Below are positions 22,202 to 59,451 of a stretch of 64,000 nt of DNA, in pieces. Numbering within the stretch: position 1 is the stretch's first letter; every line of letters starts with the position of its first letter. The position numbers and the translations under genes were made by a program. This DNA comes from an uncultured Gammaproteobacteria bacterium (GTDB lineage: Bacteria; Patescibacteriota; Microgenomatia; CAZETR01; Amesbacteraceae). The stretch spans positions 122,000 to 185,999 of the forward strand of contig CAZIVL010000001.1 of assembly GCA_964543035.1 (NCBI GenBank). Direction: 5' to 3'. Under the pieces are notes generated by a model, which worked only from the letters and a program-made list of their open reading frames with translations, made no database searches and had not been told where the DNA came from.

Positions 22202-22767
22202 CACTGGAATCGGCTAATAAATTAGGTCATACTGACTACTAGCGGCCAAGATTAAGGAAAAATCTCGTGTTTCGTTAGCAGTTTTGACGACTGGGACAGT
22301 GCTGGCGGGTGGCTGGATTGTCACTCGGACGATTTAGTCACAGATGTAATGGACAGTAACTTTTTCAAAATTGCCAACAAGCAGGCCATCCGGCTGGCGA
22401 GCCTCGATGCACTTGAAGATAGTCTTTGTTACAGCCGTGAGTCCAACAATCACGGCTAACATTTATGCCAGGGAGCACAATTTAAGGATATATAGCAAAA
22501 GAAACCTCTCCAAATTCGAAATGTGTTATCAAAGCCAATTACGGCGCCCTCTCCAATGACTACAATTATTTCACTCCCGGTTGTAGGCATTATTAAAAAG
22601 CAATTGCCCCGCCTTTTTAAGACGACAGCAATTGACATGTACCTGGGCTTTATCCGCGACTTGAACCTGAATTAACTCCATTTTCTATCTCCTTTTTTAT
22701 ATTTTGTCCAAGTTGTTTTTGAGATCCCATATGGATATATTGTACAACTTTTATGGATAGCTCAAAG

Positions 22768-25700
22768 CTAATTCATCGCCTGAACTTTGAAGTCTTCCCA
22801 AACAAAGTGCAGGTTATCTATGGTTGTTTTAGTCTCGGGCAAGATTCTTGAAACGATAACATCGTTGCCAAATAGGTCGTTAATGACATCCCCTTCTTTG
22901 GTGAATATTTTTTCGGCAATCATTTCTTTGGCTTCAGCTGCGCCAATATAAACTGGTACATATTTTTTGCCACCGATATAGACTGGGTTAAAGCCATCAA
23001 CTGGGATCATTTCTTTGACTTCGGTAGGATAGCGTTTATCCATTAGGTAAAATTGTTTGACTACGCCTTCGGGTGTAGTGATTTTAACTATCTCACCTGC
23101 TTTTGGTGCAGCTTGTACTTGTTGGGTTTTATCCATAGGGTTTTCACTGGCCATAGTCGAGCTAAATCGAGCAAATTCAATAAATATGAAGGTAAATACA
23201 ACCATCATAACAGCGGGCGCAAACATGGAAACATAGTTCTTCTTGCCCGGAACAAATTGGCGCAATAGAAGTGAATTTCCAACAACGGAAATTGAACTCA
23301 GAGCCATAGCCAGCCCTGCGAGTTCCGGTTTGAGAACGAGTCCAGCAAATGCAAAGACACGGGCAGCCACGGGAATACCGATCACGTTATAAAACAGGGC
23401 AAAGAACATGTTTTGCTTTACTTTTTGCATGGTGGATTTGGAAAGGTCGATAGCGTGTACCACATCACGTAAGTCGTTCTTAATAATGACGATGCCTCCC
23501 GCTTCCATGGCCACATCAGTCCCTGAACCCATGGCAATGCCTAAATCAGCTTGAGCTAAAGCTGGCGCGTCATTAATACCATCTCCGACCATGGCTACCT
23601 TTTTTCCGGCATCCTGAAGCTTTTTCACTTCATTGGCTTTATCTTGTGGTAGGACTTCCGACAAGACATTGGTAATTCCAACTTGAGATGCAATGGCTTT
23701 AGCAGTTCGAGCGTTATCTCCCGTGATCATCCACACTTCAATACCAAGTTTTTGTAGCTTTTCTACTGCCTCTCGTGACGTTTCTTTGACTGTGTCGGCA
23801 ACTCCAATGATGCCCAAGATTCCGTCTTTAGTAGCCAGAGTCATCACCGTTTTACCTTGTTCTTCGAGTCGATTAATCTTTCGATCATACTTACCTACTT
23901 CTAGGCCAAGGGTGTCGGTCATGAGCTTTCTGTTACCAAAGTAGTAAACGGTGTCACCAATTTGACCTTTAACGCCGTGACCCGGAATGGCACTAAAGTT
24001 TTCGACACTACTTAAGGACACATTTTCTTCCTGAGCATAACTATAAATGGCTTCAGCCAATGGATGCTCGGATTGCTTCTCTAAGCTAGCTGAGATTTGC
24101 AGCACTTCATCTTCAGTAAAGCTGCCAAAGTCTTCAATATCTGTTACCTCGGGTTTGCCTTTTGTAATGGTTCCGGTTTTATCAAAAATAATGGCATTTA
24201 CTTTACAAGCCGATTCTAATGGTTCTCCACCTTTGACCAGTATTCCATGTTCAGCACCCTTGCCAGTTCCCACCATAATGGCCGTGGGTGTAGCCAAACC
24301 TAGAGCACAAGGACAGGCAATGACAATAACTGCTGTAAATGCCATTAAAGCAAAAGACAAAGTGGACCCAAGCAGGAAGTACCAGACACCAAAGGTAAGT
24401 AGAGCCACGATAATAACCGCTGGAACAAACCAAGATGAAATGCGGTCAGCAAAGGCTTGAATTGGCGCTTTTGAGCCTTGAGCGTCTTCGACTAATCGAA
24501 TAATTTGTGACAAAGTGGTTTCTGAGCCTATACGAGTGGCTTTGAATTCAAAACTTCCGGTTTTATTAATAGTACCTCCAATGACATTGTCGCCGGAATT
24601 CTTCTCAACGGGTAGACTTTCACCAGTAATCATTGACTCATCTATGGCTGACATACCTTTGAGAATGACACCATCAACCGGAACTTTTTCTCCCGGACGA
24701 ACGACAACAATGTCATCTTTCACGACCTGATCAACTGGAATATCAAGGGTACTGCCATTACGAACCACGCGCGCGGTCTTGGCCTGAAGCCCCATGAGTT
24801 TTTTAATTGCTTCAGACGTTCGACCTTTAGCTTTGGCTTCTAAAAACTTCCCTAATAGCACAAAGGTAATCAAGAATGCAGCAGTTTCAAAATACAGCTC
24901 AGGAATTTTGGCACCACCAAGTCCGATTAAAGAATCGTTTATGGCAAAGTATTTAATGAAATTGACGACACTGTAAAAGTAGGCTACAGAGGTGCCAATG
25001 GCGATTAAACTATCCATGTTAAAGGTACGCATACGAAGAGCCGACATCATGCCTTTATAGAATCCCGATCCGATGAAAAATTGCACCGGTGTTGCTAAAA
25101 CAAAAGAGATAACTCCCACCCATGGAAGTAGCAGCTTTGCGCCGGGAATAAAGTTGAAGAAATCAAACAACATAAAGTAAATCATGGGTAGTGACAAGAT
25201 AAAGCTAACTAGAAACCGTTTGTATTGGGACCTAATTTCGTTTTGTTGGCGAAGGGATTGTTCCTTTGTATCGGCTGTATCGGCAACCTCTGCTTTGTAT
25301 CCGGCTTTTACAACGGCTTGCAATAAATCCTGGTTTGATGCCTGAGACGGATCAAATACGACTGCAGCTTTTTCTGCCGCAAAATTAACCCGGGCTTCGG
25401 TAACTCCTGAAACCTTTTTTAATTGACGTTCAATTATTTGAGCGCAAGAAGAGCAGTGCATACCGAATATTGCTAAATTAGCCCGACCTGTTTTTTCGCT
25501 TTTAACAGCGGCGGATACAACTTCAGAAGCTGTACTTATGGGTTGTTGTTCTGTATCAGTCGTTGTATTTCCAAAGCGCAATTTGCCTTTAATGCTAAAT
25601 TGCCCATCGGCATCACGGCCAATTTTTCCATCAATTTCAACTTCCTGTGGAAATGATATTTGCGAAACATAAAGGGGGGTATTAGGAGCGAGTACTCCGT

Positions 25701-25956
25701 TAACTTGCCCATTTGCATGTCCGTTTGAGTGGACAGTGTCGCCCATAACTCTACCTTTATAGCCTGCAGTTTGAATTGCAGACAGAATTTTATCGCTAGT
25801 TACCTGTTGATTTCCGGCAACTAGAGTCCCAAGGCCTGATTTAAATTCCAAGTTCACATCCTTTACACCCGGAATTGAACTTAATTCGTCTTTGATTAAC
25901 AGCTCGCAGGAAGCACAGTGCATACCATCTACTTGAAATTGAATTTTTTGGTTCAT
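22768..25956 (-). CDS. copA: Cu(I)-translocating P1B-type ATPase with two N-terminal HMA domains and a roughly 200-aa C-terminal extension
   Basis: Two MHCxSC HMA motifs, TGES, CPC ([12 protein letters not shown]), DKTGTIT and [10 protein letters not shown]. An extra TM helix plus soluble tail follows the last canonical helix. Confidence 0.85.
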
Positions 25957-26186
25957 AGTGTCTCCTTTTGAGTCGCCTCATACGGCGTGCCGGTCAAACT
26001 TGCTTGAATTTGATCCAGGCTCAAATTTGAATTCGATTCGACCGTAGCCTTACTGGTTTTTAAATCAACGCTGACTGTTTGGACCCCATTTATGGCGCCA
26101 ATTCGTTTTTCTGAAACTTTTTTGCAAGCAGTGCAAGTAAGACCTGATAATGTAAATAGTTGTGTATACATGAGTATTCCTTTCAT
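25953..26186 (-). CDS. HMA-domain copper-chaperone-like protein
   Basis: A single CTAC metal-binding motif in an HMA-sized ORF; start overlaps the upstream gene. Confidence 0.6.
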
Positions 26187-27928
26187 TAAATAACCTTTAT
26201 TTGACCCCTAGGTGCTCCCATAGCACACGTAATGCTGTAAGTACCTTTCTTGGTTGGGGTAAAGTCAAAAGCTGTAACTTTACCCTTAGTGAAGACTTCA
26301 ATTTTGGACGTCAATCCAGGAAGAGCCACACTGCCCATGCAACCCTGGCCGTCTTCTTTGGCATCGATTTCAAAACGAACCGGCTCATTGACTTTAACGG
26401 TAAATTGAGTCGGCGAAATATCCCCCCGAACGGTGTAACTTGCTGTTATAACTTGAGCATTTGCAGAACTAACCTGAGATGTTTGTGACTGATTTATAGT
26501 GTTGGTCAAAGCTGGTTGAGTATTGAAGTTGGCGGGTATTGTCGTACTTTGGTTGCTAGTTCCTTCAACAACCGTAAATGAACCGGTATACATGCCCATG
26601 ATGCAAGAGAAATTGATAGTTCCAGTCTGGGTTGGCGTAAATTCAATGATGTTTTCACCCTTTTGTAATCCTTGACGGATACCGAGTTTTTGGGAAATGA
26701 TACTGGCTGCACAGGTGTATGAATCTTCGGAGGTGATGACCCAGCGAGTTGGCAGACCCTTTCGAATCGTAAACTTATTTGGTACATAGCCTCCAGAAAC
26801 TTGTCTCATCCGCACAACTTGGACACCCTCTATGATTGATACATTAGTGTCTTTAGTACCTTCAGCACTGGCCTTACTAGTAAATGCTCCTAACACAGAC
26901 ACTGCTGGGTTTAACCCCAGTAAATTCAAACCGTTCGAAATGTTAAATATAGCCAAAAGTATGACCACTACACCTACTGTTTTGAAAAAGAGACGAGCGA
27001 CAGAGCCCTTAATTGCCGAGGTTAAACCACCAACACCCAAAAGCCCTGGCGCTGTGCCGAGAGCAAAGACGCCCATGGTTAAGGCCCCGGCCAAGGCACT
27101 GCCCGAACTAATAGCGTAAAGTTGCATGGCTTGAGTAAAGCCACAGGGTAAAAAGAAAGTTAAGGCTCCCATGATGACGGCATTCTTATTGCTGTATTCA
27201 ACTTCTGCTCGATTTTTAACACCAAAGAATCGGCTGATTCCGGTAGGAAGCGTAAAGGATATCTTTTTTAAGAATGGGAATATTTCTATGAGCTGGCTGC
27301 CCAAAAGCAACATCACGATGCCAACCGCGACAGTCATAATACCCAAGGCAGAAGAAGATAACTGGAATAATGTACCGGCATAGCCAATTACTCCACCTAA
27401 AATAAAATAGGAAACAACTCTCCCCAAATTAAAGTACAAATGTGGTGTAAATTTCTCCATACCTGTAGCGTTTGGATGTTTCTCGGCAAAGCGTGCTGCC
27501 GCTCCTAAAACCAAGCCACCGACTAATGCCATACAGGTAGAAATTCCAGCGGTAAGCCCTACAAGAAATACGGTGGGTAAACTGGAATAATTATTGGAGA
27601 CATTGCTGACTAGGTTAAACAAACCCAAGCTTCGGGCAACCAAATACAAAACAATGGCTACAAAAAAAGCAATACCAAGTTCCTTGTAATCATATGGTTT
27701 TTTGGAGAAAAGTTCACGTTTTTCAACTCCAAGCATGTATCCTGCACGCTCCACTGCTCTTTGAACTGCTTGGTCATCAAGTACATTCTCGTAATGAATA
27801 AAGGCGTGGCCTTTGTGGTGATTAACTACCGCCTTGGTTACACCAGGAACTTTTTTGAGTTCGTCTTCAATTAAGATTTCGCAAGATCGGCAGTGCATGC
27901 CTTTGATAAGAATTTTGCAGTTTTGCAT
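26186..27928 (-). CDS. Fusion protein: HMA domain, DsbD_2/CcdA-like Cys-bearing TM domain and two cupredoxin-like beta-sandwich repeats ending C-x-MGM / C-AMG
   Basis: MHCRSCE HMA; TM core with paired Cys (ISTCMA, LPCGFTQAM); C-terminal repeats FSCIMGMYTGSF and ITCAMGAPRGQ. Paralog of 54512-55779. Confidence 0.55.
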   Translation of the reverse strand: MQNCKILIKGMHCRSCEILIEDELKKVPGVTKAVVNHHKGHAFIHYENVLDDQAVQRAVERAGYMLGVEKRELFSKKPYDYKELGIAFFVAIVLYLVARSLGLFNLVSNVSNNYSSLPTVFLVGLTAGISTCMALVGGLVLGAAARFAEKHPNATGMEKFTPHLYFNLGRVVSYFILGGVIGYAGTLFQLSSSALGIMTVAVGIVMLLLGSQLIEIFPFLKKISFTLPTGISRFFGVKNRAEVEYSNKNAVIMGALTFFLPCGFTQAMQLYAISSGSALAGALTMGVFALGTAPGLLGVGGLTSAIKGSVARLFFKTVGVVVILLAIFNISNGLNLLGLNPAVSVLGAFTSKASAEGTKDTNVSIIEGVQVVRMRQVSGGYVPNKFTIRKGLPTRWVITSEDSYTCAASIISQKLGIRQGLQKGENIIEFTPTQTGTINFSCIMGMYTGSFTVVEGTSNQSTTIPANFNTQPALTNTINQSQTSQVSSANAQVITASYTVRGDISPTQFTVKVNEPVRFEIDAKEDGQGCMGSVALPGLTSKIEVFTKGKVTAFDFTPTKKGTYSITCAMGAPRGQIKVI

Positions 27929-27948
27929 ATAAAATAAAGATAACCACC

Positions 27949-28131
27949 CTAATGCTTGTGGTTACCACCTTTCATCATAAGAATATGGAGAAGCGGACAG
28001 GCAAGGATGAATCCATAGGTGAGGACCGATCCTACTGGCAGCTTAAAAACAAATAATGCCAAGCCTCCAGCAACTAGTCCCAAGAGGCAGATAATCAAAA
28101 CAGGGTGAGCCTTGAGTATATTCATACTCAT
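27949..28131 (-). CDS. Small two-TM protein with C-terminal LACPLLHILM...HKH motif (DUF2933-like)
   Basis: Paralog of 37469-37675; both lie immediately downstream of a histidine kinase. Confidence 0.5.
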   Translation of the reverse strand: MSMNILKAHPVLIICLLGLVAGGLALFVFKLPVGSVLTYGFILACPLLHILMMKGGNHKH

Positions 28132-28149
28132 TACTGTAACGTCTGAGGA

Positions 28150-28166
28150 ATTAAGATTTTATGAAG
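28150..28166 (-). promoter_or_regulatory. Conserved island motif (minus-strand sense CTTCATAAAATCTTAAT), copy A
   Basis: The identical 16-nt core occurs at 32850 and 36179, each 23-33 nt upstream of a minus-strand start codon. Confidence 0.4.
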
Positions 28167-28170
28167 ATGT

Positions 28171-29559
28171 TTAACGGGGAAAGTTCACCATAATGGTAGT
28201 AACCTTTTTAGGAGTACTTTCAATAGTAATTGTGCCCCTATGGGCTTCAATAATAGATTTACAAATAGCCAGTCCTAATCCTGATCCAAAAGTTGTCACT
28301 TTTTTGCCACCCCGGTAGAAGCGGTCAAAGACATGGGGTAAGTCGGCTTTTGAAATACCTGGTCCAGTGTTGGTAATTTCAATTAAGTCTGACGATTTGG
28401 TTCTTGATAAGGTCACAGAGATTCTGCCCTTTTCAGGTGTATATTTGACAGCATTCTCTAAAAGATTAAAAAATGCCCGAAATAGCTTTTGGCGTTTTCC
28501 GGCAATCTCAATATGCTGTTTGATTTCCTCAATTACATAGATCTGTTTCGCCTCTGCCATTTTCTTGGTGATATCGACAAGTTCTCCTAGCATTTCCGAC
28601 AGGTCAACCCTTTCAGTGTTTAAAAGTGGCTTGTCTGATTCCGACCAGGCCAAATCCAAAACATCATTAACAGTTCCGGATAAATGATCTACATCAACCA
28701 ACGTTTCGTTTAGTGTGTGCTGGTACTCTTTGGCGGTTCTGTCTTTTGAAAGTGTTACTTCAATTGAGTTTTTTAACGTTGATAAGGGTGTGCGTAGTTC
28801 ATGAGCTACATCGCCAATAAATTGCCGTTCTCGAGTAAACGAATCTGAAAGTCTAGTGAGCAGTGAGTTAAACGACGTAGATAATTCTTCTAGTTCATCG
28901 CCTGTTTTGAATATATGAATCGGTTGAGATAAATTTGACAGCGAAATCTCTTTGAGCTTTAAAGACAGTTGGGTTACGGGTTGCAACGCTTTTTTTGAAA
29001 TAATAAGGCCTCCGATAAGAGACAGTACGCTGGCTATACCAAAGATTAAGACAAGTTCTGAGGACAGCTTATTTAGCGAGTCAGTAATGACATCTGTCGG
29101 GTGACCGACTAAAACGAGGTTGTCTGTATTTTCATTTGTTGAAACCGGAAAGATTCCCACACGCATGTGAGTAGTTCCGATCGTTAGTTCAATAAATGAA
29201 GAATTGATTAGATTAGCCGATTTTTCAAAAACGTCTTTAAGTGTTTTTGTACTCGACTCAACTATTTGAGAAGAGCTTAGAATTTCCCCGTTTCTGTTGG
29301 CAATGACAATAAGCATTCCCGGCATTTCCGAAAACTCCCTACTTAGTTGTTCTTGGGGGAAAGAAGTATGCATGCCTACACTTTGTTGTGCAATTAGATC
29401 GACTATTTGCTCACCATGTTGAGTAATTTCTTGATCGGTTTGGGCTAGTAACGTTTGCTTAGTCACGACATAAAATATGCTAAATACTACTGCCGCGCTA
29501 ACAAAGAAGGTTACAAAATACCACAGTGATAATCTGAATCGAACGCTTTTCAGGTTCAT
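28171..29559 (-). CDS. Sensor histidine kinase (CusS/CopS-like)
   Basis: Two TM helices, HAMP, HisKA (AHELRTP) and HATPase (GSGLGLAI). Confidence 0.8.
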   Translation of the reverse strand: MNLKSVRFRLSLWYFVTFFVSAAVVFSIFYVVTKQTLLAQTDQEITQHGEQIVDLIAQQSVGMHTSFPQEQLSREFSEMPGMLIVIANRNGEILSSSQIVESSTKTLKDVFEKSANLINSSFIELTIGTTHMRVGIFPVSTNENTDNLVLVGHPTDVITDSLNKLSSELVLIFGIASVLSLIGGLIISKKALQPVTQLSLKLKEISLSNLSQPIHIFKTGDELEELSTSFNSLLTRLSDSFTRERQFIGDVAHELRTPLSTLKNSIEVTLSKDRTAKEYQHTLNETLVDVDHLSGTVNDVLDLAWSESDKPLLNTERVDLSEMLGELVDITKKMAEAKQIYVIEEIKQHIEIAGKRQKLFRAFFNLLENAVKYTPEKGRISVTLSRTKSSDLIEITNTGPGISKADLPHVFDRFYRGGKKVTTFGSGLGLAICKSIIEAHRGTITIESTPKKVTTIMVNFPR

Positions 29560-30233
29560 GATTTTTGCTCCGAAACTTTAAACCCTACACCATGGACTGT
29601 TTGAATTAATTTCACTTTGTCACCTCCGTCAATTTTTTTGCGCAAAGTGGTGACAAACACATCAACGACATTGCTCATACTGTCAAAGTTATAGTCCCAA
29701 ACATGTTCGGTAATCATGGTTCGGGTCACGACTTCATTTGGGTGACTCATTAATAGTTCCAGAATGGCAAATTCTTTGGGAGTGAGAGAAAGGTCTTTTC
29801 CACTTCTGACTACGGTGTGTTTAATGGGGTCAAGTTCCAAGTCAGCAACTTTTAGTGTAGGAGATGCGCTGTTGTGCGTTCTCCTAATCAAGGCCTGCAA
29901 ACGTGACTTTAATTCGATAAAAGAAAAAGGTTTGGACAAATAATCATCTGCGCCACTATCAAGTCCTTGAGATATGTTTTCAACAGTCCCCTTTGCAGTC
30001 AGCATCAATATGGGAGATTTATTCTTTTTGTTGCGCAAAGTTTTACATACCTGAATGCCGTCGACTTTTGGCAGCATGATATCTAAAATTATGCAGTCGT
30101 AGGTTTCCGATTCGGCCAAATACAGCCCTTCTTCACCATCAAAAGCTTGATCGACAGCAAATCCAGACTCCATCAGACCTTTTTTAAGAGAATCGGAAAG
30201 GCGCTTCTCGTCCTCAATAACTAGTATTCTCAT
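29556..30233 (-). CDS. OmpR-family response regulator (CusR/CopR-like)
   Basis: Receiver domain (DCIILDIMLP, LMLTAKG) plus a winged-helix domain. Confidence 0.85.
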   Translation of the reverse strand: MRILVIEDEKRLSDSLKKGLMESGFAVDQAFDGEEGLYLAESETYDCIILDIMLPKVDGIQVCKTLRNKKNKSPILMLTAKGTVENISQGLDSGADDYLSKPFSFIELKSRLQALIRRTHNSASPTLKVADLELDPIKHTVVRSGKDLSLTPKEFAILELLMSHPNEVVTRTMITEHVWDYNFDSMSNVVDVFVTTLRKKIDGGDKVKLIQTVHGVGFKVSEQKS

Positions 30234-51952: not shown

Positions 51953-52005
51953 AAAATGTTATTTTACTATGTTTTGTAGTAATTAGGAAGCCATTGTATG
52001 AGCTT

Positions 52006-52209
52006 CTATTTATCCCCCTTTTTCTCACCGCGCATAAAAAACGCCATAGCACCGCACATAACAGTACACCCCAAAAGAGGTGCTGCTGCTATTAAACCGG
52101 CAATGCCAATAGCAGGAACGAAAATAAGTAATGAGACAATAATAACTCCCAAAATAAGAAGAACTTTTGGATTTAGACATCTCCTACATGAATGTAATAA
52201 TTTATTCAT
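52006..52209 (-). CDS. Small Cys-containing membrane protein (CRRC, GCTVMCG), start overlapping the copA stop (ATGA)
   Basis: Start ATG at 52207-52209 overlaps the ATPase stop at 52206-52208. Confidence 0.35.
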   Translation of the reverse strand: MNKLLHSCRRCLNPKVLLILGVIIVSLLIFVPAIGIAGLIAAAPLLGCTVMCGAMAFFMRGEKKGDK

Positions 52210-54497
52210 ATTCTCTGCGTCCTTAATCGTAACGAGTTTGTGACCACCGAAACACTACTAAATCCCATTGCAGCTCCAGCAATTGCGGGGTTTAAAAGAA
52301 TACCGAAAAATGGATACAATGCTCCAGCTGCAATTGGAATACCAATGACATTATAGAAGAATGCCCAAAAGAGGTTCTGCTTGATAATACTCATCGTTGC
52401 TCTAGCTAACTTTACCGCTTTTGGTAGTTTAGAAATATGTCCCCCTAAAAGCGTTATCCCTGCTGACTCAATTGCTACATCGGTTCCTGTCCCCATCGCA
52501 ATCCCCACATCAGCTGTAGCCAAAGCTGGCGCATCATTAATGCCGTCACCCACCATTGCCACTTTATAACCTTCTTTTTGGAGTTTCTGAATTTCACTGG
52601 CTTTGTCTCCTGGTAAGACTTCGGCGATGACTCGATCTATACCTACTTGTTTAGCGATGTGCTGAGCAGTTCTTTTGTTGTCTCCTGTAAGCATTGCGAC
52701 TTTAATACCTTGCTTGTGAAGCTCCGCCACTGCTTCTTTTGCATCGTCTTTGATGGTGTCAGCAATACCAATGTAAGCAATAACGTGCTTCCTGTTCATG
52801 AAGACTACTGGTGTTTTCCCTTGTGAAGCAAACTTTTTAATCATTTCTTCATCAATTTTTACTTTGAGATCATCAACCAACTTAAGATTACCAGCATAAT
52901 ACTCAGTATCATCAATACTTCCCTTTAGCCCTTTACCTTCAATTGCCTCAAAATCTTTTACTTTATGGAGGCTAATTTTTTCATCCTTAGCTTTTTCAAC
53001 GACTGCTTGGGCTAGTGGATGTTCAGAATGGCTTTCTAGTGAAGCGAGGAGTTGCAAAATATCTTTCTCTGAATGAGAGCCAATTGCCTGAATATCAGTC
53101 ACTTCCGGTGCCCCTTTAGTAATCGTTCCCGTTTTATCCATGACAACAAAGTTGACCCCATTAAACTTTTCTAGACTTTCAGCATTCTTAATCAAGATGC
53201 CATTCTGAGCAGCTTTGCCAACACCGACAATAATAGCGGTAGGCGTAGCGAGACCCATTGCACATGGACAGGCAATGACCAGAATTCCCACAAAACTCAA
53301 AATACCGAGCGTTAGTGCCTGGGAAAATGGCATGAATTGAACACCAATCACCAACCAAAGTATTAATGTAATAACTGCCAGGACCAACACCGCTGGGACA
53401 AAAATGGCTGACACTTGATCGGCCATCCGTTCAATCGGTGCTTTGGATCCCTGAGCCTCCTCAACCATTTTAATGATTTGCGAAAGCATGGTATCACTGC
53501 CAACTTTAGTAACTCTAATCTGCAATGAGCCTTGTTTGTTAATGGTCGCTCCGATAACAGTATCCTCTGGTCCTTTATCTACCGGAATAGGCTCACCGGT
53601 GATCATCGACTCATCAATAGAGGATTTGCCTTCGATAATGACTCCATCCAAGGGAATCTTGGTTCCAGGTTTCACGAGCATAATATCGCCAACTATAACT
53701 TGATCGATGGGTAATTCCACTTCCTTGCCATCTCGAAGAATGAGAGCATTTTTGGCCTGGAGTCCTAAGAGTTTTTCTATGGCTTCACCAGTCTTTAACT
53801 TCGAGCGAGCTTCGAGGAATTTCCCGAGGGTAATAAAACCAATAACAACAATAACGACGTCATAATAATTTTGCTGGGTATTAACATAAGGAGCCAGCAC
53901 TTTATCAAATGCAGTTACACTAAAGCTGTAAAGGAAAGCCACCAACGTTCCAATCCCTACAAGCGTGTCCATATTCGCCACACGATATTTTATAAAACGG
54001 ACGATTCCTTGAAGATATGGAACCCCAATGACAAACATTGTATAGGTGGCAAAAATCGGCAAAAGATGATGGAAAAACTCCATGATGGCTTCCGGCATCT
54101 CTGGCCATAACCGTAGAGGGTCAGCTCCTATTTCCCAGGTCATGACAAAAATGCTAAAGGCAACAAAAGGCATGGCAATCTGAACGTGCTTTTTTAGCTT
54201 TGAGAGTTCCTGGAGTTTTTGCTCTTTTGCAGTTTGGTCAGAGGAAACCGGCGACATATCATGGCCGGCATGAGGATTGGGTGGATTTTCTAAACTATAC
54301 CCAAGTTTTTGAACCTGGTCATTCATTTGGGAGAGGTTGACCTTGTCAGCGTCGAATGAAACTTCGGCTTTTTCTGTACCGTAATTAACGTTGCAAGAAA
54401 CTATACCATCCAGTTTTTCAAGTTTGCGCTTGATAATGCTGGCGCAAGATGCGCAGTGCATCCCTTTAACTGGAAATGTTTGTTTTATCTCTCCCAT
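52206..54497 (-). CDS. copA: Cu(I)-translocating P1B-type ATPase with a single N-terminal HMA domain
   Basis: [40 protein letters not shown]. Confidence 0.85.
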   Translation of the reverse strand: MGEIKQTFPVKGMHCASCASIIKRKLEKLDGIVSCNVNYGTEKAEVSFDADKVNLSQMNDQVQKLGYSLENPPNPHAGHDMSPVSSDQTAKEQKLQELSKLKKHVQIAMPFVAFSIFVMTWEIGADPLRLWPEMPEAIMEFFHHLLPIFATYTMFVIGVPYLQGIVRFIKYRVANMDTLVGIGTLVAFLYSFSVTAFDKVLAPYVNTQQNYYDVVIVVIGFITLGKFLEARSKLKTGEAIEKLLGLQAKNALILRDGKEVELPIDQVIVGDIMLVKPGTKIPLDGVIIEGKSSIDESMITGEPIPVDKGPEDTVIGATINKQGSLQIRVTKVGSDTMLSQIIKMVEEAQGSKAPIERMADQVSAIFVPAVLVLAVITLILWLVIGVQFMPFSQALTLGILSFVGILVIACPCAMGLATPTAIIVGVGKAAQNGILIKNAESLEKFNGVNFVVMDKTGTITKGAPEVTDIQAIGSHSEKDILQLLASLESHSEHPLAQAVVEKAKDEKISLHKVKDFEAIEGKGLKGSIDDTEYYAGNLKLVDDLKVKIDEEMIKKFASQGKTPVVFMNRKHVIAYIGIADTIKDDAKEAVAELHKQGIKVAMLTGDNKRTAQHIAKQVGIDRVIAEVLPGDKASEIQKLQKEGYKVAMVGDGINDAPALATADVGIAMGTGTDVAIESAGITLLGGHISKLPKAVKLARATMSIIKQNLFWAFFYNVIGIPIAAGALYPFFGILLNPAIAGAAMGFSSVSVVTNSLRLRTQRI

Positions 54498-54511
54498 ACA
54501 TATTTTTTACT

Positions 54512-54727
54512 TCAGGCCGCTATAACTACCTCGTATTCAAGTTTTTGTATAACAGCAATGATTTGGTCATGGTGGACTTTATCAGGATCGTATGTAACGA
54601 CCGAAATCTGTTTTGCATAGTGAGTTTTTGCCTCTTTTACACCATCCAAATCCCCCAACTCAAAGTCAATGTTGATGGCACAACTCGTACAGTGCATGCC
54701 CACGATTTCTAAAGTTATTGTTTTCAT
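54512..54727 (-). CDS. copZ: HMA-domain copper chaperone (CopZ-like)
   Basis: MHCTSCA motif in a 71-aa ORF. Confidence 0.7.
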   Translation of the reverse strand: MKTITLEIVGMHCTSCAINIDFELGDLDGVKEAKTHYAKQISVVTYDPDKVHHDQIIAVIQKLEYEVVIAA

Positions 54728-55779
54728 ACGCCTTTATCTTGAACGACATTTATCTCTCCACGAAACATACCCATGCTGCACATAAAGGCAAGTGGACCAG
54801 GAGTTGTGGGAGCAGTAAATTCAAGTGTGTCCGATTGACCAATCGCAACAACCCGCTGCAAACCAAGCTTGGGAACTGTTAGTGATTGCGTACATCCGCC
54901 TCCACCTTGATTGACAATGTTGAATTTGACCTTTGATCCAGCTCTAACATTAACAACAGCCGGTTCTGTCCGATAACCGTTTTGGGTGATAAAAATAGTC
55001 GCCTCCTTCACCGTAGCTGAATTAGTTGTAGCTCCAGCTACCCGACCTTCATCACAAAAACTAATCGTGCAAGTAATACTGGTTAAGACATTTTCAAAAG
55101 TGAAGTTACTGCCACTAAGTGCCAAAGCTCCATTAAAGTTATAGAGGGCTACCAAAATAATTGCTGCAGCTGCCACCTTGTTAAAGGTTCCACTGAGTGA
55201 ACTGCCTAGTTTCCGTGCCGCATACCCAAGAAGGAAAAATAACGGAGAAGTTCCTAGCATAAAAACAAACATGGTAGTTGCTCCGGCAAGAGGAGAGCCG
55301 GTTGAAATAGCATAAGCCATCATTGCTTGTGTTGCTCCACAGGGAATGAGAACCGTCATAGCTCCAAGGAGTGCCGGACCAAAGACAGCTTTACTCTTTG
55401 ATTGATTGCGTACTAATCGTGTTAAAAATTTGGGTGGCTGAATTACAAAGTAGCGAAAAATCGGGTGAACCTGAAGAAGATTAAGCGCAGTACCGACCAT
55501 AAACACTACTGCTGCAAATTGGAGGAGGACGCGGGCAGAAAGTGAAAGCTGAAATACTGAACCAAGAGATCCTAAGAGTAAACCAAGAATGGTATAAGCC
55601 ACCAATCGAGTAATTAAAAACGAAAGAATGGGGAGAAGATGTCCAAATCGTTTTGCGTCTTCTTCAAGCTTATTCTCTTCCTGCTGAGCAATTGAGCTGG
55701 CGAGAAGTCCACCCTGAACAGCTAGACACGTTAGTCCACCTGCAAATAATCCTGTGATGAAAATTGAGAGTATGTCCAT
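54724..55779 (-). CDS. DsbD_2/CcdA-like Cys-bearing TM domain fused to one cupredoxin-like C-terminal domain (C-SMGM)
   Basis: GGLTCLA and LIPCGATQAM TM cysteines; C-terminal FMCSMGMFRGEI. Paralog of 26186-27928 without the fused HMA. Confidence 0.55.
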   Translation of the reverse strand: MDILSIFITGLFAGGLTCLAVQGGLLASSIAQQEENKLEEDAKRFGHLLPILSFLITRLVAYTILGLLLGSLGSVFQLSLSARVLLQFAAVVFMVGTALNLLQVHPIFRYFVIQPPKFLTRLVRNQSKSKAVFGPALLGAMTVLIPCGATQAMMAYAISTGSPLAGATTMFVFMLGTSPLFFLLGYAARKLGSSLSGTFNKVAAAAIILVALYNFNGALALSGSNFTFENVLTSITCTISFCDEGRVAGATTNSATVKEATIFITQNGYRTEPAVVNVRAGSKVKFNIVNQGGGGCTQSLTVPKLGLQRVVAIGQSDTLEFTAPTTPGPLAFMCSMGMFRGEINVVQDKGV

Positions 55780-55801
55780 AGTTCATATTCCAAGTTAACC
55801 T

Positions 55802-56581
55802 TTATGATTGCAATGCCTTATCAATCATCGGCTTGACTTGTTCAAAAGGTAAGGCGCCTGGAACAAGCTGGGTATCACCTTTTGCGTTGATAATAATAGT
55901 TCCTGGTGTACCGGTTACACCCTCAGCTGTTCCCTTGGCCATCTGATCCTTGACTTTTTGAGCCATTTCTCCAGAGTCTAAACACTGTTTGAACGATGAT
56001 TCATTAAGTCCCAACTCTTTGGCCAACGGAGTTAATTTGTCCAAGGCAAATCCAGTCCCATTAGAGGTGGTGCGTTCAAAGATAGCATCTGTATATTTCC
56101 AGAATGCTTCATTTCCACCAATTTTTCCAGCACACTCTGATGCTTCAGCTTCTTTTTGTGCATTGGCATGGAAAGAAAGCGGATAATGGCGGTATACCCA
56201 TTTCACCTTATCCCCGTATTCTTTCATAACCTGTTGCATCGTCGGGTGAAAACTTTTGCAGAATGGACATTCTAAATCTGAATACTCTACCATTACAACT
56301 TTGGCATTTTTGTTACCTTTGTACCAATCCTTATCGGTTACTTCCGGTTTTTTGGTTGCCACCTGGGGTTGAGGTGCGCCTGCAGCAGCCGGAGCACCCG
56401 CAGCTTGATTAGTACCTGTCGTGGTTGTTCCAGCCACCGCAGCGCCCTTTTCGAGATACTTGACTTTGGTGTAGAGAGATCCAATAGCAAACGATGCACC
56501 AATAAGAACTAAAACGAGAATAATGCTGAAATTACCTGAAAGCATATTTTTAAGAGGAGATAAATTTTTTTCTTCAGTCAT
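55802..56581 (-). CDS. Membrane-anchored DsbA/BdbD-like thiol-disulfide oxidoreductase (CPFC)
   Basis: TM anchor, Gly/Ala/Pro-rich linker, LECPFCKSFHP. Confidence 0.75.
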   Translation of the reverse strand: MTEEKNLSPLKNMLSGNFSIILVLVLIGASFAIGSLYTKVKYLEKGAAVAGTTTTGTNQAAGAPAAAGAPQPQVATKKPEVTDKDWYKGNKNAKVVMVEYSDLECPFCKSFHPTMQQVMKEYGDKVKWVYRHYPLSFHANAQKEAEASECAGKIGGNEAFWKYTDAIFERTTSNGTGFALDKLTPLAKELGLNESSFKQCLDSGEMAQKVKDQMAKGTAEGVTGTPGTIIINAKGDTQLVPGALPFEQVKPMIDKALQS

Positions 56582-56636
56582 AATGATTATTATAAACTAA
56601 TATTACTACAAAGTGTAGTAACTCTATAAACCAATG

Positions 56637-57710
56637 TCAATAGGAAACTGACGTAAATTGTACTGGTGAATAAAGCCTTGAAGACTGAGGCGCCGAAATT
56701 GGAGGGGTCTGCATACAAGCATTAGTACATGCTCCACTTGGGTCAACACAAGCCATAACAGCATCTTCTCCCATGTCATGAAACTCGATAGCCTGTACTG
56801 GAGCTATTGTCAAACCACCCAAAATTGCCACGGACAGTATACTTATAACTACATTTCTTATTGAGAGGCACGGTGAAAATATTGTCTTTTTAGTAATGGT
56901 CCGGATACGAGTTTCTAATGTCTGAGCATCCATAAAACTTGGTACTATGGCTAAAGCCGGATAGAGATCATAATGCAGAAGTTTTGAAAGAACTGATCGG
57001 ACATGCTCCTTTCCATCATCCATAGCTGTAATTGCCGCATTATCAGCTTTAATTTCTCTTTGTGTTCTATACATTGCTATCAAATCCGTAAGAAGTGGGA
57101 AAAAAGGAAATAATGATTGAGTGAATACTGCAAATAGCATGATTAACGTATCATGATGCTCTAAATGATATTTTTCGTGTCGCAATACTGCTTCTATTTC
57201 ATCCGAAGTTGTAATTGCGAGCATTTGAGTAGAGATGTAGATTTTTGGCCTGGTAAATCCGAAACAAAAAGCGCCCACCTGTTCATCTTGTATAACCCGA
57301 ATTTTATTAACAAGGTGTAATTTTTTCGCAAGCGGCAGAATACTATCTTTCTCTACGATCTTTTCTTCAAGCGACTTATGTTGCTGAAAAACTCTCAGTA
57401 CTGTTAAAAAAACTTTTACTATTATATAGAGAGTCAAAGCAGCAAAACCCCACATCATAAAAAACTTAATATTCAAGCGTATTGGTTGCATCAAGACAGA
57501 CTGAAGCATTTCTCGGCAGTAATAGACAGTATTATGCAGAAGAAATGGAATGTATTTAGCACAAGCATTATATAGGAGTGTTCCTAACACAACAAAAATC
57601 CCTAAAAAAAACCACGCGTAGCTATTTATCTTTGTCATATATTTGTTCTTGTAAAAGTTTAAGAAAATACTCTTTTTTCTCTTTTGGCAAACGTTCGATG
57701 GATTGAGCAA
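56637..57710 (-). CDS. BlaR1/MecR1-type M56 zinc metallopeptidase with a Cys-rich C-terminal tail instead of a beta-lactam sensor (start probably the internal Met near 57638)
   Basis: Four TM helices, HEKYH(LEHHD) zincin motif, and a C-terminal TM helix plus ACVDPSGACTNACMQ. Confidence 0.65.
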   Translation of the reverse strand: MLNPSNVCQKRKKSIFLNFYKNKYMTKINSYAWFFLGIFVVLGTLLYNACAKYIPFLLHNTVYYCREMLQSVLMQPIRLNIKFFMMWGFAALTLYIIVKVFLTVLRVFQQHKSLEEKIVEKDSILPLAKKLHLVNKIRVIQDEQVGAFCFGFTRPKIYISTQMLAITTSDEIEAVLRHEKYHLEHHDTLIMLFAVFTQSLFPFFPLLTDLIAMYRTQREIKADNAAITAMDDGKEHVRSVLSKLLHYDLYPALAIVPSFMDAQTLETRIRTITKKTIFSPCLSIRNVVISILSVAILGGLTIAPVQAIEFHDMGEDAVMACVDPSGACTNACMQTPPISAPQSSRLYSPVQFTSVSY

Positions 57711-58044
57711 AAGAAGCTAGGGCAGCATCGCCAAATGTTCCGAAGAATTTATCTAAAAGATTCCTCGCCATTTTTTGGCTAAATTCCTCTTTAGTTTGTT
57801 TTGGGGCAAAGACGACGGTAAAAGCCGAGGCATCTTTTTCAACTAACCCTTTTTCATGCAACCTTTCTAAAATCGTGGCAATCGTCGTATACGCAAGAGT
57901 CTTTGTTTTATTCGTCTCATCGGCCACTTCCCTAATGGTGCATTCACCCAATGCCCAGACAACATTCATCGTTTCCTGCTCTAGGTCGCTCAAGTTTTTC
58001 TGTGCCATACTACGTATTGTAGAAGGTTGAATGAAAAAAGACAA
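57622..58044 (-). CDS. BlaI/MecI/CopY-family winged-helix repressor
   Basis: TIATILERLHEKGLV penicillinase-repressor signature; precedes the M56 peptidase. Confidence 0.7.
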   Translation of the reverse strand: MSFFIQPSTIRSMAQKNLSDLEQETMNVVWALGECTIREVADETNKTKTLAYTTIATILERLHEKGLVEKDASAFTVVFAPKQTKEEFSQKMARNLLDKFFGTFGDAALASFAQSIERLPKEKKEYFLKLLQEQIYDKDK

Positions 58045-58060
58045 CCCAACGCATTATTCT

Positions 58061-58970
58061 CCGTAGAAATCCGGCATTGGGCATACAATTATGGAAATGC
58101 TCAATGCTACAAAGATTGTTCTTGCCTGGGAGTTGTATGAGTCTGGTATTTGTAAGGTGGATGTAGCCAAAAGGTTGGAGGTAAATCGAGATACGGTTCG
58201 AGTTTGGATTCAGGGAGTCCAAAAACATAGCCTCAACACATTTCTTGATTTGTATGCCTCTGCAAAAAAGGGTTCAAGACCCAAACGCCAGATTGATCCA
58301 ATTCTCAAACGGTGGGTTTGGGATATTCGTGAACGGGAGTTGGACTGCTGTGGTCAAAAGATAAACTACTTTCTGGAAAAAGAACGTGGGGTAAGTGTGT
58401 CCATTCCCAAGATTTACGAGATACTCGCTGAAAAGTATCAAATAAAAAGTAAATGGAAAAAGAATCAGGCTCTAGGACCGGTACCAGAGGCCCAAAAGGC
58501 ACGTGAGGTCATCCAGATGGACTCCATAGACTTTGGCGGGATATTTGCATTTACTGCGGTGGATATATTTTCTCGCGAAGCTGATGTCTTGTTACGACCA
58601 TCGTTAACTAGTCATGACGGACTAGTTTTCTTGGAAACGTGTATGCCTCGGAGATTTGATGGCCACAGCAAGTTAATCCAATCTGATGGCGGACCCGAAT
58701 TCAAAGATGAATTCAAAGAAAACGTTGGACAATATACCGATAGATACCGAATTTCTGCTGCATACAAAAAGAACGAGCAGGCATATATTGAGTCGTTTAA
58801 TAGAACAGTTAGAAAAGAATGTTTAGGTTGGAGTAAATACCACCCTGATCAAATCACCCAGCTTAACTACCTGGTAAACACTTTCCTTGAGCGGTATCAT
58901 TACCACAGGCCACATTTAGGTCTAGGATTAAGACCACCGCTTACCAAGTCCTAGTGCCGGATATTTACGG
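58061..58970 (+). mobile_element. IS481-like insertion sequence (single transposase, imperfect roughly 17-bp terminal inverted repeats)
   Basis: Left end CCGTAGAAATCCGGCAT versus reverse complement of right end CCGTAAATATCCGGCAC (14/17 match), bracketing the transposase ORF. Confidence 0.55.
58091..58954 (+). CDS. DDE transposase (rve integrase core, IS481-like) with N-terminal HTH
   Basis: DDE residues in QMDSID, QSDGGPEF and IESFNRT contexts. Confidence 0.8.
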   Translation: MEMLNATKIVLAWELYESGICKVDVAKRLEVNRDTVRVWIQGVQKHSLNTFLDLYASAKKGSRPKRQIDPILKRWVWDIRERELDCCGQKINYFLEKERGVSVSIPKIYEILAEKYQIKSKWKKNQALGPVPEAQKAREVIQMDSIDFGGIFAFTAVDIFSREADVLLRPSLTSHDGLVFLETCMPRRFDGHSKLIQSDGGPEFKDEFKENVGQYTDRYRISAAYKKNEQAYIESFNRTVRKECLGWSKYHPDQITQLNYLVNTFLERYHYHRPHLGLGLRPPLTKS

Positions 58971-58985
58971 AAACATATCGTTTAA

Positions 58986-59222
58986 CTAAAATTCTACAGC
59001 GTATCTCGGACTAAAACTGAAATTGGTAAGGCTAGCTGATTCGATTTTGTCACAAATAAATTGTTTTATAGACTGTCTTCCAGATTTACCGCCACTGGTA
59101 TCATATCCCCAGAAGTACTCCATACCTACACCATTTTTTCTCACATAATATTTCATGGAGTAAGGTTCAACCAATCGATCATAACCATCGTATGACAATT
59201 CCAGCACCTTTTGTGACTCCAT
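58986..59222 (-). CDS. Doubtful small ORF (possible gene fragment); 5' end overlaps the tRNA-Glu
   Basis: ORF only; overlaps the tRNA 3' end by 9 nt. Confidence 0.2.
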   Translation of the reverse strand: MESQKVLELSYDGYDRLVEPYSMKYYVRKNGVGMEYFWGYDTSGGKSGRQSIKQFICDKIESASLTNFSFSPRYAVEF

Positions 59223-59286
59223 CCGGATTCGAACCGGAGTTCTCAGAATGAGAATCTGATGTCCTGGGCCTCTAGACGATGGAGCC
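59214..59286 (-). tRNA. tRNA-Glu (anticodon CUC)
   Basis: Manual fold: acceptor GGCTCCA/TGGAGTC, D-loop TCTAGAGGCCCAGGAC (a hallmark of tRNA-Glu), anticodon stem TCAGA/TCTGA with loop TTCTCAT, T-arm TCCGG-TTCGAAT-CCGGA. CCA is not encoded. The 3' end faces the island. Confidence 0.75.
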
Positions 59287-59451
59287 AGACCTAAATTCTG
59301 AGGCTAATTATACACTTTACTCACCCTCCCCACATTGACAAAATGGCCTCCAGAGAGTACAATCTACAGAGTTCAGTCACTCCGCAAGTGCGGAGTTTAT
59401 TTTTTCTTCAAGGGTGCTAAAACACCAGAAAACTAAAAAAATCACCAAAAT

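Follow-up and report, generated by a model that had tools for sequence, protein, structure and literature searches.

Organisation and composition of the block

The sequence analysed here (the window) is a stretch of 64,000 nucleotides of contig CAZIVL010000001.1 (assembly GCA_964543035.1, positions 122,000 to 185,999), and its subject is a block of metal and thiol redox genes lying between lon (18279-20693 in window coordinates, which are used throughout) and a gene for tRNA-Glu(CTC). The block (22768-58044) is probably a chromosomally fixed composite metal/thiol-stress island, in which two modules, designated module L and module R, arrived or were assembled separately in a variable lon/tRNA-Glu interval. 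This reading rests on the gene content and motifs, the cis-elements and their positions in promoters, the insertion relative to the backbone and the colinearity of module R with a genome of candidate division WWE3. Since the two halves have separate regulators, separate cis-elements and different evolutionary signals, the block is treated as two modules and not as one cassette.

The Lon protein of the window is 69-76% identical to Candidatus Amesbacteria Lon proteins, all named top matches are from Amesbacteria, and the best non-self Lon among 5.8 billion proteins reaches 76%. By these Lon matches the host is placed in the Microgenomates group of the candidate phyla radiation (CPR, or Patescibacteria), near Candidatus Amesbacteria and without a close sequenced relative. 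CPR bacteria have genomes of ~1 Mb and are regarded as streamlined, dependent on hosts and carrying little mobile DNA. The metal block, with ~36 kb, takes up 7% of the 508-kb contig.

Every accepted open reading frame (ORF) within 22768-58008 lies on the minus strand, giving ~37 ORFs of at least 58 aa when the small ones are counted, and the sole plus-strand gene at the block is the transposase gene (58091-58954) of an insertion sequence (IS). The original prediction had described about 45 consecutive minus-strand genes broken only by this transposase; the strand pattern was correct and the gene number too high. The lower GC content claimed for the block was also found, with coding GC of 0.416 against 0.452 in the flanks and GC at third codon positions (GC3) of 0.379 against 0.462, while GC2 was equal (per-gene GC3, Mann-Whitney p = 1.6e-6). 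The GC3 shift, though real, is modest, and the values of the block overlap those of backbone genes; the flanks have low-GC3 patches of their own at 8.3-10.3 kb, 17.7-18.2 kb and 60.0-61.9 kb.

The block proper starts at ~22.7 kb, as had been proposed, and is preceded by a 566-bp junction with remnants of an SNase gene and by the DUF6798 gene (ORF 20738), which has a backbone-like GC3 and is probably an older resident of the lon/tRNA-Glu interval outside the metal block. The separate zinc-uptake operon assigned to the backbone (zur-znuA-znuC-znuB) was confirmed. A search of the whole window against Rfam returned two tRNAs only.

P1B-type ATPases and thiol proteins

Four pumps are predicted in the block, three of the Cu type and one of the Zn/Cd type, and their classes, which agree with the content first proposed for this single-strand gene set, are supported by the motifs and by TIGR01511 and TIGR01512 (Table 1). 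The CopB-like ATPase begins with an HMBD (zinc-ribbon-like) domain and a His/Met-rich stretch, and its motif in the fourth transmembrane (TM) segment is CPD, not CPC or CPH, a feature kept in the orthologs of related loci L084 (6282-8576) and L088 (6292-8553). The Zn/Cd-type ATPase has no metal-binding domain and carries DKTRT in the position of DKTGT, the otherwise invariant phosphorylation motif. Since DKTRT is kept in the WWE3 and Beckwithbacteria orthologs (L082 17735-19639 and L083 17787-19700, 84-90% identity), it is neither a sequencing error nor a sign of a pseudogene. The C-terminal ~190 aa of the 1062-aa CopA (22768-23340) comprise an extra TM segment and a ~150-aa domain without family match; the extension is common to the Microgenomates homologs of 1035-1072 aa and absent from homologs of 905-935 aa.

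Besides the pumps, the block encodes two HMA chaperones, two DsbD_2-cupredoxin fusions, one DsbD_TM protein and three membrane-anchored DsbA-like proteins. According to the TM scan all partners are membrane-anchored, a layout that suits an envelope lacking an outer membrane. Neither an RND/CusCBA system nor a multicopper oxidase was seen in the block.

Module L is predicted to be run by two-component systems

Module L (22768-39431, ~16.7 kb, 21 genes) is predicted to be run by two paralogous OmpR-type two-component systems, whose response regulators RR1 and RR2 are 67% identical. The genes of the two histidine kinases, HK1 and HK2, lie in operons L2 and L4, and HK2 is followed by genes for a 68-aa DUF2933-like membrane protein and a 91-aa secreted His/Met-rich protein. 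A further putative regulator, originally labelled CsoR-like, matches PF02583 below threshold, and the label was overstated: its ligand positions read C35...N60...C64, with the His of the C-H-C set missing. The 320-aa Cys-rich protein of operon L2 always neighbours DsbD_TM/DUF1573 genes, and its homologs (35-57% identical) occur in copper clusters of L006, L087, L088, L089, L117 and L163.

A 16-nt box, TTCATAAAATCTTAAT, is present in three mismatch-free copies in the window, each in a promoter region at the place of the -35 element, ~8-12 nt upstream of -10-like hexamers, which is a PhoB-box type of arrangement. The three operons preceded by this box contain two Cu pumps, a chaperone, the HMA-DsbD_2-cupredoxin protein, the CcdA-like protein and small His/Met/Cys proteins. 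A degenerate box lies at 39449-39464, upstream of RR2 and operon L4. In L023, L163 and L165, too, box-like sites stand before the orthologous operons and the regulator genes, and one of those in L165 is an exact copy.

Elsewhere, module L was matched only in patches of 65-76% nucleotide identity, and its genes stand in other orders in L084, L088, L163 and L165, the last of which holds both modules within a block of >23 kb. From these comparisons module L looks like a rearranged cluster typical of Microgenomates.

Module R is headed by a BlaI-like repressor and a BlaR-like protease

Module R (39567-58008, ~18.5 kb, 19 genes) begins with genes for a BlaI/MecI/CopY-family repressor and a BlaR-like membrane metalloprotease, and its operon R3 comprises a DsbA-like protein of 374 aa, cytochrome b5, the Zn/Cd-type ATPase, a class-V cysteine desulfurase, a DsbA-like protein of 310 aa and a 261-aa membrane protein. 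The repressor has a single Cys (position 23) and lacks the C-terminal CopY motif CxCx4CxC. BlaI of Staphylococcus aureus is cleaved at N101/F102; in the alignment of the repressor with that protein (PDB 1sd4, E = 1.7e-8), F100 stands opposite BlaI F102.

The BlaR-like protein has four hydrophobic segments and, after the last of them, a 38-aa tail at the place where BlaR1 carries its penicillin-binding domain. The tail is extracytoplasmic and holds the motif E-F-H...M-A-C-x6-C-x3-C. Among 112 full-length homologs, HExxH is present in all (112/112) and the C-x4-6-C-x3-C tail in 98/112, and the named ones are all from CPR. No penicillin-binding (transpeptidase-like) sensor domain was found in the protein by Pfam and TM scan, and a sequence search against PDB gave no match at E <=0.01. 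There is no beta-lactamase or PBP2a gene in the window, and the operators precede metal/thiol operons.

Five sites resembling the operator TACTACAnnnTGTAGTA occur in the window, including a weak one at 36216, against 0.14 expected by chance, and the other four (45437, 51965, 56604 and 58008) each lie in one of the promoters of operons R1-R4. The site at 45437 is the exact palindrome TACTACAAATTGTAGTA, and that at 56604 reads TACTACAAAGTGTAGTA. At 56604 and 58008 the -10 hexamer lies inside the operator, which is the classic occlusion arrangement and includes autoregulation of blaI. Equivalent sites stand upstream of blaI in L023, L082, L084, L088 and L166; in 24/80 metagenome loci the dsbA homolog has an operator ~40 nt before its start, and in many cases there is one upstream of blaI as well. 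Of the 80 genome loci anchored on Lon, L023 alone has an exact match to TACTACAnnnTGTAGTA.

Table 1. Positions of the operons, genes, cis-elements and junction features of the block in the window
Feature	Position	Strand	Evidence and remarks
DUF6798 membrane protein, 487 aa	20738-22201	+	Pfam PF20604; GC3 0.455, backbone-like
Decayed SNase-like (thermonuclease) remnants	22337-22593	+	Within 566-bp non-coding left junction
Operon L1	22768-28131	-	Pfam, motifs, TM scan; four genes
Cu(I) P1B-1 ATPase CopA, 1062 aa	22768-25956	-	Two HMA; CPC/YN/MxxSS, DKTGT, N-terminal HMA CxxC
CopZ-like HMA chaperone	25953-26186	-	Operon L1; Pfam
HMA-DsbD_2-2x cupredoxin protein	26186-27928	-	Operon L1; Pfam
DUF2933-like small membrane protein	27949-28131	-	Operon L1
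Response-regulator box 1, TTCATAAAATCTTAAT, putative	28150-28165	-	Exact copy, promoter region
Operon L2	28171-32826	-	CsoR-like, DUF1573, DsbD_TM/CcdA-like, 320-aa protein, RR1, HK1; Pfam, TM scan
Histidine kinase HK1	28171-29559	-	~130-aa extracytoplasmic domain (TM scan)
Response regulator RR1	29556-30233	-	Operon L2
Cys-rich N-terminally anchored protein, 320 aa	30285-31247	-	No family match; CCNNSTAFPDC, C-terminal GGCGV
CsoR-like protein, 88 aa	32560-32826	-	PF02583 full length, 16.5 bits vs cut-off 22.8, E = 0.012
Response-regulator box 2, TTCATAAAATCTTAAT, putative	32850-32865	-	Exact copy, promoter region
Operon L3	32947-36145	-	YHS, CopB-like ATPase, 119-aa SRPBCC-like, DUF5676; Pfam
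Cu-type CopB-like P1B ATPase, 751 aa	33702-35957	-	TIGR01511 575 bits vs cut-off 397; YN, MSxSS
YHS protein	35969-36145	-	Operon L3
Response-regulator box 3, TTCATAAAATCTTAAT, putative	36179-36194	-	Exact copy, promoter region
Operon L4	36261-39431	-	RR2, HK2, DUF2933-like, His/Met-rich secreted, methyltransferase; Pfam, TM scan
ICMT/PEMT-like methyltransferase	36261-36929	-	Operon L4
Histidine kinase HK2	37737-38744	-	Two adjacent TMs, no sensor loop
Response regulator RR2	38751-39431	-	Operon L4
Operon R4	39567-45397	-	CDF-SPFH fusion, two SPFH/Band-7, peptidyl-prolyl isomerase (PPIase); Pfam; distal end of module R
PPIC-type PPIase, 738 aa	39567-41783	-	Operon R4; PrsA/SurA-like
CDF-SPFH fusion	43871-45397	-	Operon R4
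BlaI-type operator TACTACAAATTGTAGTA, putative	45437-45453	.	Exact palindrome, operon R4 promoter; same site in L166
Operon R3	45478-51952	-	Six genes; Pfam, motifs, colinearity
Zn/Cd P1B-2 ATPase, 634 aa	48402-50306	-	TIGR01512 498 bits vs cut-off 313; CPC, TM7 Lys, DVG
BlaI-type operator, putative	51965-51981	.	2 mismatches, upstream of operon R3; equivalent in L166
Operon R2	52006-56581	-	DsbA-like 259 aa, DsbD_2-cupredoxin, CopZ-like HMA, 763-aa ATPase, 67-aa membrane protein
Cu(I) P1B-1 ATPase, 763 aa	52206-54497	-	HMA; CPC/YN/MxxSS, DKTGT, N-terminal HMA CxxC
BlaI-type operator TACTACAAAGTGTAGTA, putative	56604-56620	.	-10 TACACT of TTGACA-17-TACACT inside (56612-56640)
BlaR-like M56/M48 membrane metalloprotease, 333 aa	56637-57638	-	PF05569 63 bits vs cut-off 31; HEKYH
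BlaI/MecI/CopY-family winged-helix repressor, 128 aa	57622-58008	-	PF03965, 85 bits, above cut-off
Autoregulatory BlaI-type operator, putative	58008-58024	.	2 mismatches; overlaps -10 of TTGTCT-17-TACAAT (58016-58044), abuts blaI ATG
IS481-like element, 912 bp	58060-58971	+	22-nt inverted repeats 58060-58081 and 58950-58971
ORF of 78 aa, no family match	58986-59222	-	Start overlaps tRNA 3' end by 10 nt; gene in L168
tRNA-Glu(CTC)	59213-59286	-	Full length, 3' end facing block; ARAGORN, Rfam RF00005 56 bits

The lon/tRNA-Glu interval in related genomes

Relatives of the locus were collected with Lon as the anchor, in place of ORF 20738, for which no relative was confirmed in a single-protein scan of genome contigs and an exact copy was present in one Logan contig of the same organism; beside Lon in the relatives no homolog of the DUF6798 protein was found. 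The backbone order YkuD-Lon-tRNA-Glu(CTC)-GreA-LysRS (lysyl-tRNA synthetase) is kept across ~30 Microgenomates loci. The gap between Lon and tRNA-Glu is 9-10 bp in L006 and L009 and tens to hundreds of bp in many relatives, and in some relatives it is filled by unrelated cargo (1.5-8.8 kb), for example glycogen genes, peptidases or ArgRS. In the window, the distance is 38.5 kb. Since Lon and tRNA-Glu are adjacent in many relatives and 38.5 kb apart here, the block was inserted into an interval of variable content, and it is not a syntenic core region of the group. Among the Pfam families listed for the cargo of the same interval in relatives (10 + 58 proteins), there were housekeeping or metabolic families and one IS200-like transposase.

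The gene set itself is not confined to this genome: many Microgenomates and WWE3 genomes have the same supercluster in rearranged form. The Amesbacteria-like locus L006 (Lon 68% identical) has a small copper cluster (2528-8844) upstream of YkuD-Lon, across lon from where the block stands in the window, with genes for CopA, DUF1573, a homolog of the 320-aa protein, DsbD_2-cupredoxin and CopZ at 45-48% identity.

At the left junction, the SNase remnants consist of two tblastn pieces, 50% and 40% identical to a 225-aa SNase-like ORF of L018 (E = 1e-5); intact SNase homologs occur in L018 and in the gap 3' of tRNA-Glu in L027. At the right junction, the IS encodes a 287-aa transposase with an rve domain, for which the best family is IS481, below the curated cut-off. 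A distance of 15 nt separates the element from the blaI -35 hexamer downstream of it, and the blaI promoter and operator are intact. The 78-aa ORF between the IS and the tRNA is probably a gene remnant; a reading of it as a WYL fragment was dropped, there being no family match.

Several further features were seen in the flanks. On the other side of tRNA-Glu, a 276-aa protein without family match and an M20 peptidase are encoded between GreA and LysRS (60052-61898, GC3 0.38-0.39); since GreA and LysRS are directly adjacent in L005-L009, this is a second small insertion. The neighbouring gene (61888-63789) encodes a class II aminoacyl-tRNA synthetase (tRNA-synt_2, OB anticodon domain) fused to a C-terminal DUF2000. 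Between tRNA-Glu and greA (59335-59396) there is a near-consensus promoter TTGACA-17-TACAAT, followed after 16 nt by a strong hairpin with a T-run, ACTCCGCAAGTGCGGAGT TTATTTTTTC, which could be a greA leader, an attenuator or a small RNA. Further upstream, a low-GC backbone patch (8294-10317, 0.35-0.42) with strong negative GC skew encodes NUDIX, ASCH, dUTPase and inositol monophosphatase proteins. The patch adjoins tRNA-Gln(CTG) (10322-10395), and the orthologous tRNA-Gln of L154 has a blaI-blaR-dsbA block at its 3' side.

Relationship of module R to CPR genomes of other lineages

Module R is colinear with L082/L166 over 15 genes, at 83-91% amino-acid and 73-79% nucleotide identity, and the operators are at the same four promoters. 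The proteins of L082/L166 exactly match candidate division WWE3 bacterium RAAC2_WWE3_1 (complete genome, 878,109 bp), and those of L083 (~85% identity to the window) exactly match metagenome-assembled genomes of Candidatus Beckwithbacteria and Microgenomates. In both the window and WWE3 the module ends at the PPIase gene. Its window-specific indels are the 261-aa gene and the 763-aa Cu(I) ATPase with the 67-aa gene, and this ATPase is absent from the WWE3 and Beckwithbacteria versions; in their place, WWE3 has three ABC-transporter genes and a BacA gene.

Among the 120 best Lon matches, all at >=60% identity, there was no WWE3 Lon. Since module R reaches 83-91% identity and Lon at most 76% anywhere, horizontal exchange within CPR is indicated, and module R is predicted to be a discrete unit exchanged among CPR lineages. 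At conserved codons, third-position identity is 0.40-0.60 between the window and its WWE3 orthologs (0.50-0.60 for the DsbA and BlaI orthologs) and 0.36-0.39 between Lon of the window and of Amesbacteria. A comparison of the DsbA homolog with viral contigs gave one weak match at 41% identity.

In WWE3, module R is preceded (L082 265-7213; L166 305-619) by genes for an HTH_17/MerR-like protein, a 967-aa TraG/TrwB-like coupling protein, Replic_Relax, ArdC-N-like, DUF3644, DUF4825 and DUF2958 proteins. This set looks like an integrative conjugative element (ICE) or a mobilisable element in a CPR genome, and a homolog of the coupling protein lies near a tRNA cluster in the Woesebacteria locus L161. 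A 164-aa gene of L082 had been considered as a Woesebacteria-like backbone marker and was dropped, because exact protein matches assign L082 to WWE3 RAAC2 and the gene stands among the ICE-like genes. In L083, the region before module R (942-8340) is prophage-like, with genes for a major capsid protein of the SU10 type and an Amidase_2 lysin and with numerous small ORFs.

Predicted regulation and function

For the signals, the response-regulator activation, the proteolytic de-repression and the physiological output, we infer the following course. In module L, HK1 would sense surface or extracytoplasmic metal, and HK2 might do so as well, with small metal-binding partners. The phosphorylated regulator would bind the 16-nt box TTCATAAAATCTTAAT in place of a -35 element and activate the genes of two Cu pumps, the chaperone, the HMA-DsbD_2-cupredoxin protein and the CcdA-like operon that holds RR1 and HK1.

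In module R, the repressor would bind TACTACAnnnTGTAGTA and occlude the operon promoters, including its own. Binding of Cu(I) or another soft metal by the three-cysteine (tri-Cys) tail of the BlaR-like protein, or oxidation of its thiols, would render the protease active, and the cytoplasmic Zn-protease domain would cleave the repressor near F100, as PetP does with PetR in the copper switch of Synechocystis, releasing the four operons. The products would be a Cu(I) pump, a Zn/Cd-type pump, the CDF-SPFH exporter, HMA chaperones, DsbA-like proteins, DsbD_2-cupredoxin, PPIase, cytochrome b5 and cysteine desulfurase. Together, the two modules are predicted to export Cu(I) and Zn/Cd from the cytoplasm, to bind metal on the extracytoplasmic side through the cupredoxin and HMA domains, and to maintain the thiols and folding of exported proteins through the DsbA-like proteins, DsbD/CcdA-type conduits for reductant and the PPIase. 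For this thiol upkeep, the copper tolerance conferred by Scs and DsbC/DsbD is an analogue.

A more far-reaching proposal, put forward tentatively and with less than even confidence, is that module R is a CPR-specific mobile regulon whose tri-Cys tail directly senses Cu(I) or thiol-oxidising stress, and which moves between CPR classes (Amesbacteria-like Microgenomates, Beckwithbacteria and WWE3) to the 3' flanks of tRNA genes, in WWE3 with an ICE-like element.

Origin of the block and alternative explanations

Of the acquired envelope metal-defence cassette first proposed, the insertion and the coherent envelope metal/thiol gene set were upheld and the single cassette was replaced by two modules. 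Likewise, the insertion beside tRNA-Glu stands as an insertion in a variable interval, whereas neither an integrase nor a repeat of the tRNA 3' end was found that would support tRNA-directed site-specific integration. Several points weigh against the composite island. No Pfam or NCBIfam integrase or recombinase domain was found in any ORF of 20.7-59.3 kb, and the IS transposase is the sole mobility gene of the block. The tRNA-Glu 3' end, a direct repeat of which had been suggested as a boundary to look for, proved unique as a 21-mer at <=3 mismatches, and short-word blastn between the left and right junctions gave matches of <=8 nt. In the interval of 14 relatives no integrase family is prominent among 25/49 Pfam families listed, and the interval may simply be a rearrangement breakpoint. 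Part of the GC3 difference could stem from expression level. The nearest homolog of the module L CopA is at 72%, similar to the 76% of Lon, and its named homologs are all from CPR, so module L may have been inherited vertically or by an older transfer. For module R, a WWE3 Lon identity of <60% is inferred from absence among the 120 best matches; a recent transfer was rejected, and the transfer is taken as old, because third-position identity is near saturation. Finally, the BlaI-like protein could answer to something unrelated to metals.

The strongest alternative is a tRNA-targeting integrative element, whereby an integrase inserted the whole block at the tRNA-Glu 3' end, and the integrase and att sites were later lost by decay or deletion, perhaps through the IS; it is possible, though on the whole unlikely. 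The block abuts the tRNA 3' end, the IS and the 78-aa ORF remnant fill a tRNA-proximal junction of 237 bp plus, and in two other genomes a blaI-led block follows immediately 3' of a tRNA gene, tRNA-Glu in L023 (in opposite orientation relative to lon) and tRNA-Gln(CTG) in L154. When the tRNA-to-blaI spacers of the window and L023 were aligned, no similarity was found past the tRNA. Variable DNA is also biased to the tRNA-Glu 3' side: the larger gap to the next backbone gene lies on that side in 16/22 relatives and on the 5' side in 6/22, with medians of 1.6 kb and 0.3 kb (Wilcoxon p = 0.006, indicative only, as the loci are related). The WWE3 neighbours of module R (coupling protein, Replic_Relax, ArdC-N and DUF2958) and the prophage genes in L083 would fit such an element too. 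The negative results for an integrase domain, for a tRNA 3'-end repeat and for an integrase family in the relatives count against it, however, and the halves of the block differ in evolutionary signal, which makes a single event unlikely.

Clearly less probable is an ancient supercluster, ancestral to Microgenomates and WWE3 and since shuffled, in which the high identity reflects constraint. The same genes and cis-elements do recur in varied order in many genomes of both groups, the CopA identity quoted above is like that of Lon with all named homologs from CPR, and synonymous sites are near saturation. Constraint alone is, however, hard to reconcile with 15 colinear genes at 83-91% identity to another CPR class while Lon reaches <=76%; these genes include those of soluble DsbA-like and SPFH proteins. 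In addition, the block is missing from the locus in the closest relatives, GC3 is shifted, and the third-position identity of DsbA and BlaI exceeds that of Lon.

As to function, the block might instead be a metal/redox homeostasis or electron-transfer system, with cytochrome b5, cupredoxin and DsbD serving respiration-like flow or metalloprotein maturation and not defence. The cyanobacterial PetRP system, which governs an electron-carrier switch and not resistance, and the cytochrome b5 and cysteine desulfurase genes in the operons agree with this. It is nevertheless improbable, for the block is dominated by four efflux-type P1B ATPases, the CDF exporter and HMA chaperones, its cupredoxin domains occur in fusion with DsbD_2 TM domains and not as free carriers, and no partner oxidase or reductase was noticed among its genes.

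An assembly or binning chimera, a WWE3-like fragment on an Amesbacteria-like backbone as the resemblance of module R to WWE3 might suggest, can practically be dismissed, because independent Logan contigs run across both junctions (L001 the left one; L167 and L168, from two sequencing runs, the right one), the exact window proteins are found on the 508-kb NCBI contig, and a nucleotide identity of 73-79% to WWE3 points to a different organism.

Significance and comparison with known systems

If the sharing of half of the block with a different CPR class, at ~90% protein identity, holds, metal and oxidative stress at the surface would rank as an important source of selection on these groundwater organisms, and large regulated modules would circulate in the CPR gene pool. 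On the same condition, the family of >100 tri-Cys-tailed BlaR-like proteases would provide a simple, testable model of non-antibiotic BlaR-type sensing. Were module R in fact a mobile regulon, it would document conjugative-type flow of large adaptive cargo among ultra-small episymbionts. The WWE3 cytochrome b5 and 'plastocyanin-like' protein, read as electron carriers by Kantor et al. 2013, would be reread as parts of a stress regulon. In the searchable literature, no published description of the module cluster in CPR was found.

The closest regulatory parallel is PetR/PetP of Synechocystis sp. PCC 6803, a copper-dependent pair of a BlaI/CopY-family repressor and a BlaR-like M48/M56 protease without a sensor domain; PetR has a conserved Phe at the cleavage site and the operator GACN5GTC, and Met residues in the TM2-TM3 loop of PetP are proposed to sense copper (bioRxiv 10.1101/2020.07.31.226407). 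Module R shares with it the BlaI-family repressor gene overlapped by that of a sensor-less membrane M48/M56 protease with HExxH, the lack of the CopY Cys motif and the scissile Phe. It differs in the operator, which is TACTACAnnnTGTAGTA and not GACN5GTC, in the E-x-H...C-x5/6-C-x3-C tail of the protease, and in its regulon, which is ~18 kb of pump and thiol genes and not an electron-carrier switch, in a CPR host. Copper dependence of the pair in module R is proposed by analogy.

With BlaI/BlaR1 and MecI/MecR1 of S. aureus, module R has in common the PF03965 fold, a four-TM M56 protease, a TACA/TGTA palindrome overlapping the promoter, and autoregulation. In contrast to BlaR1/MecR1, there is no penicillin-binding domain and no beta-lactamase or PBP2a target, and the targets are metal/thiol genes. 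In Enterococcus hirae and streptococci, copper ATPase and chaperone genes are repressed by CopY, a BlaI-family protein that recognises a TACAnnTGTA-type box. Unlike CopY, the BlaI-like repressor lacks CxCx4CxC, its half-sites are spaced by 3 nt and not 2, and it has a protease partner.

Scs, DsbD/DsbC and CcdA/TlpA are envelope thiol systems, and CusRS/CopRS are two-component copper regulons. As in Scs, DsbD/CcdA-type and DsbA-like proteins are encoded with copper genes here, in a layout that differs in suiting a single-membrane envelope and in having DsbD_2 fused to cupredoxin and HMA domains. Module L resembles CusRS/CopRS in pairing an OmpR-type regulator with a kinase that has an extracytoplasmic domain and in having a conserved box at its own and at metal operons; the box sequence is unlike the published CusR/CopR boxes.

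Metal-resistance islands associated with tRNA genes are known from Proteobacteria and Bacteroidota, for example from Acinetobacter G08/G62 (PMC6070778) and Mucilaginibacter (PMC6316836). The block is like them in its P1B ATPases, chaperones and regulators, its shifted composition, the tRNA and IS at its border and its absence from the locus of relatives. It is unlike them in having no integrase, att repeat or conjugation gene, in its reduced-genome CPR host and in an exchange pool that appears to consist of other CPR lineages. Metal-resistance islands beside tRNA genes, BlaI/CopY-family repressors and sensor-less BlaR-like proteases (PetRP) are thus already known. What is new is a reduced CPR host that spends ~7% of a 508-kb contig on metal/thiol defence and, as predicted from the sequence comparisons, a CPR variant of BlaI/BlaR marked by the tri-Cys tail, an operator of its own and a regulon of 18 kb, together with evidence suggesting movement of this regulon between CPR classes.

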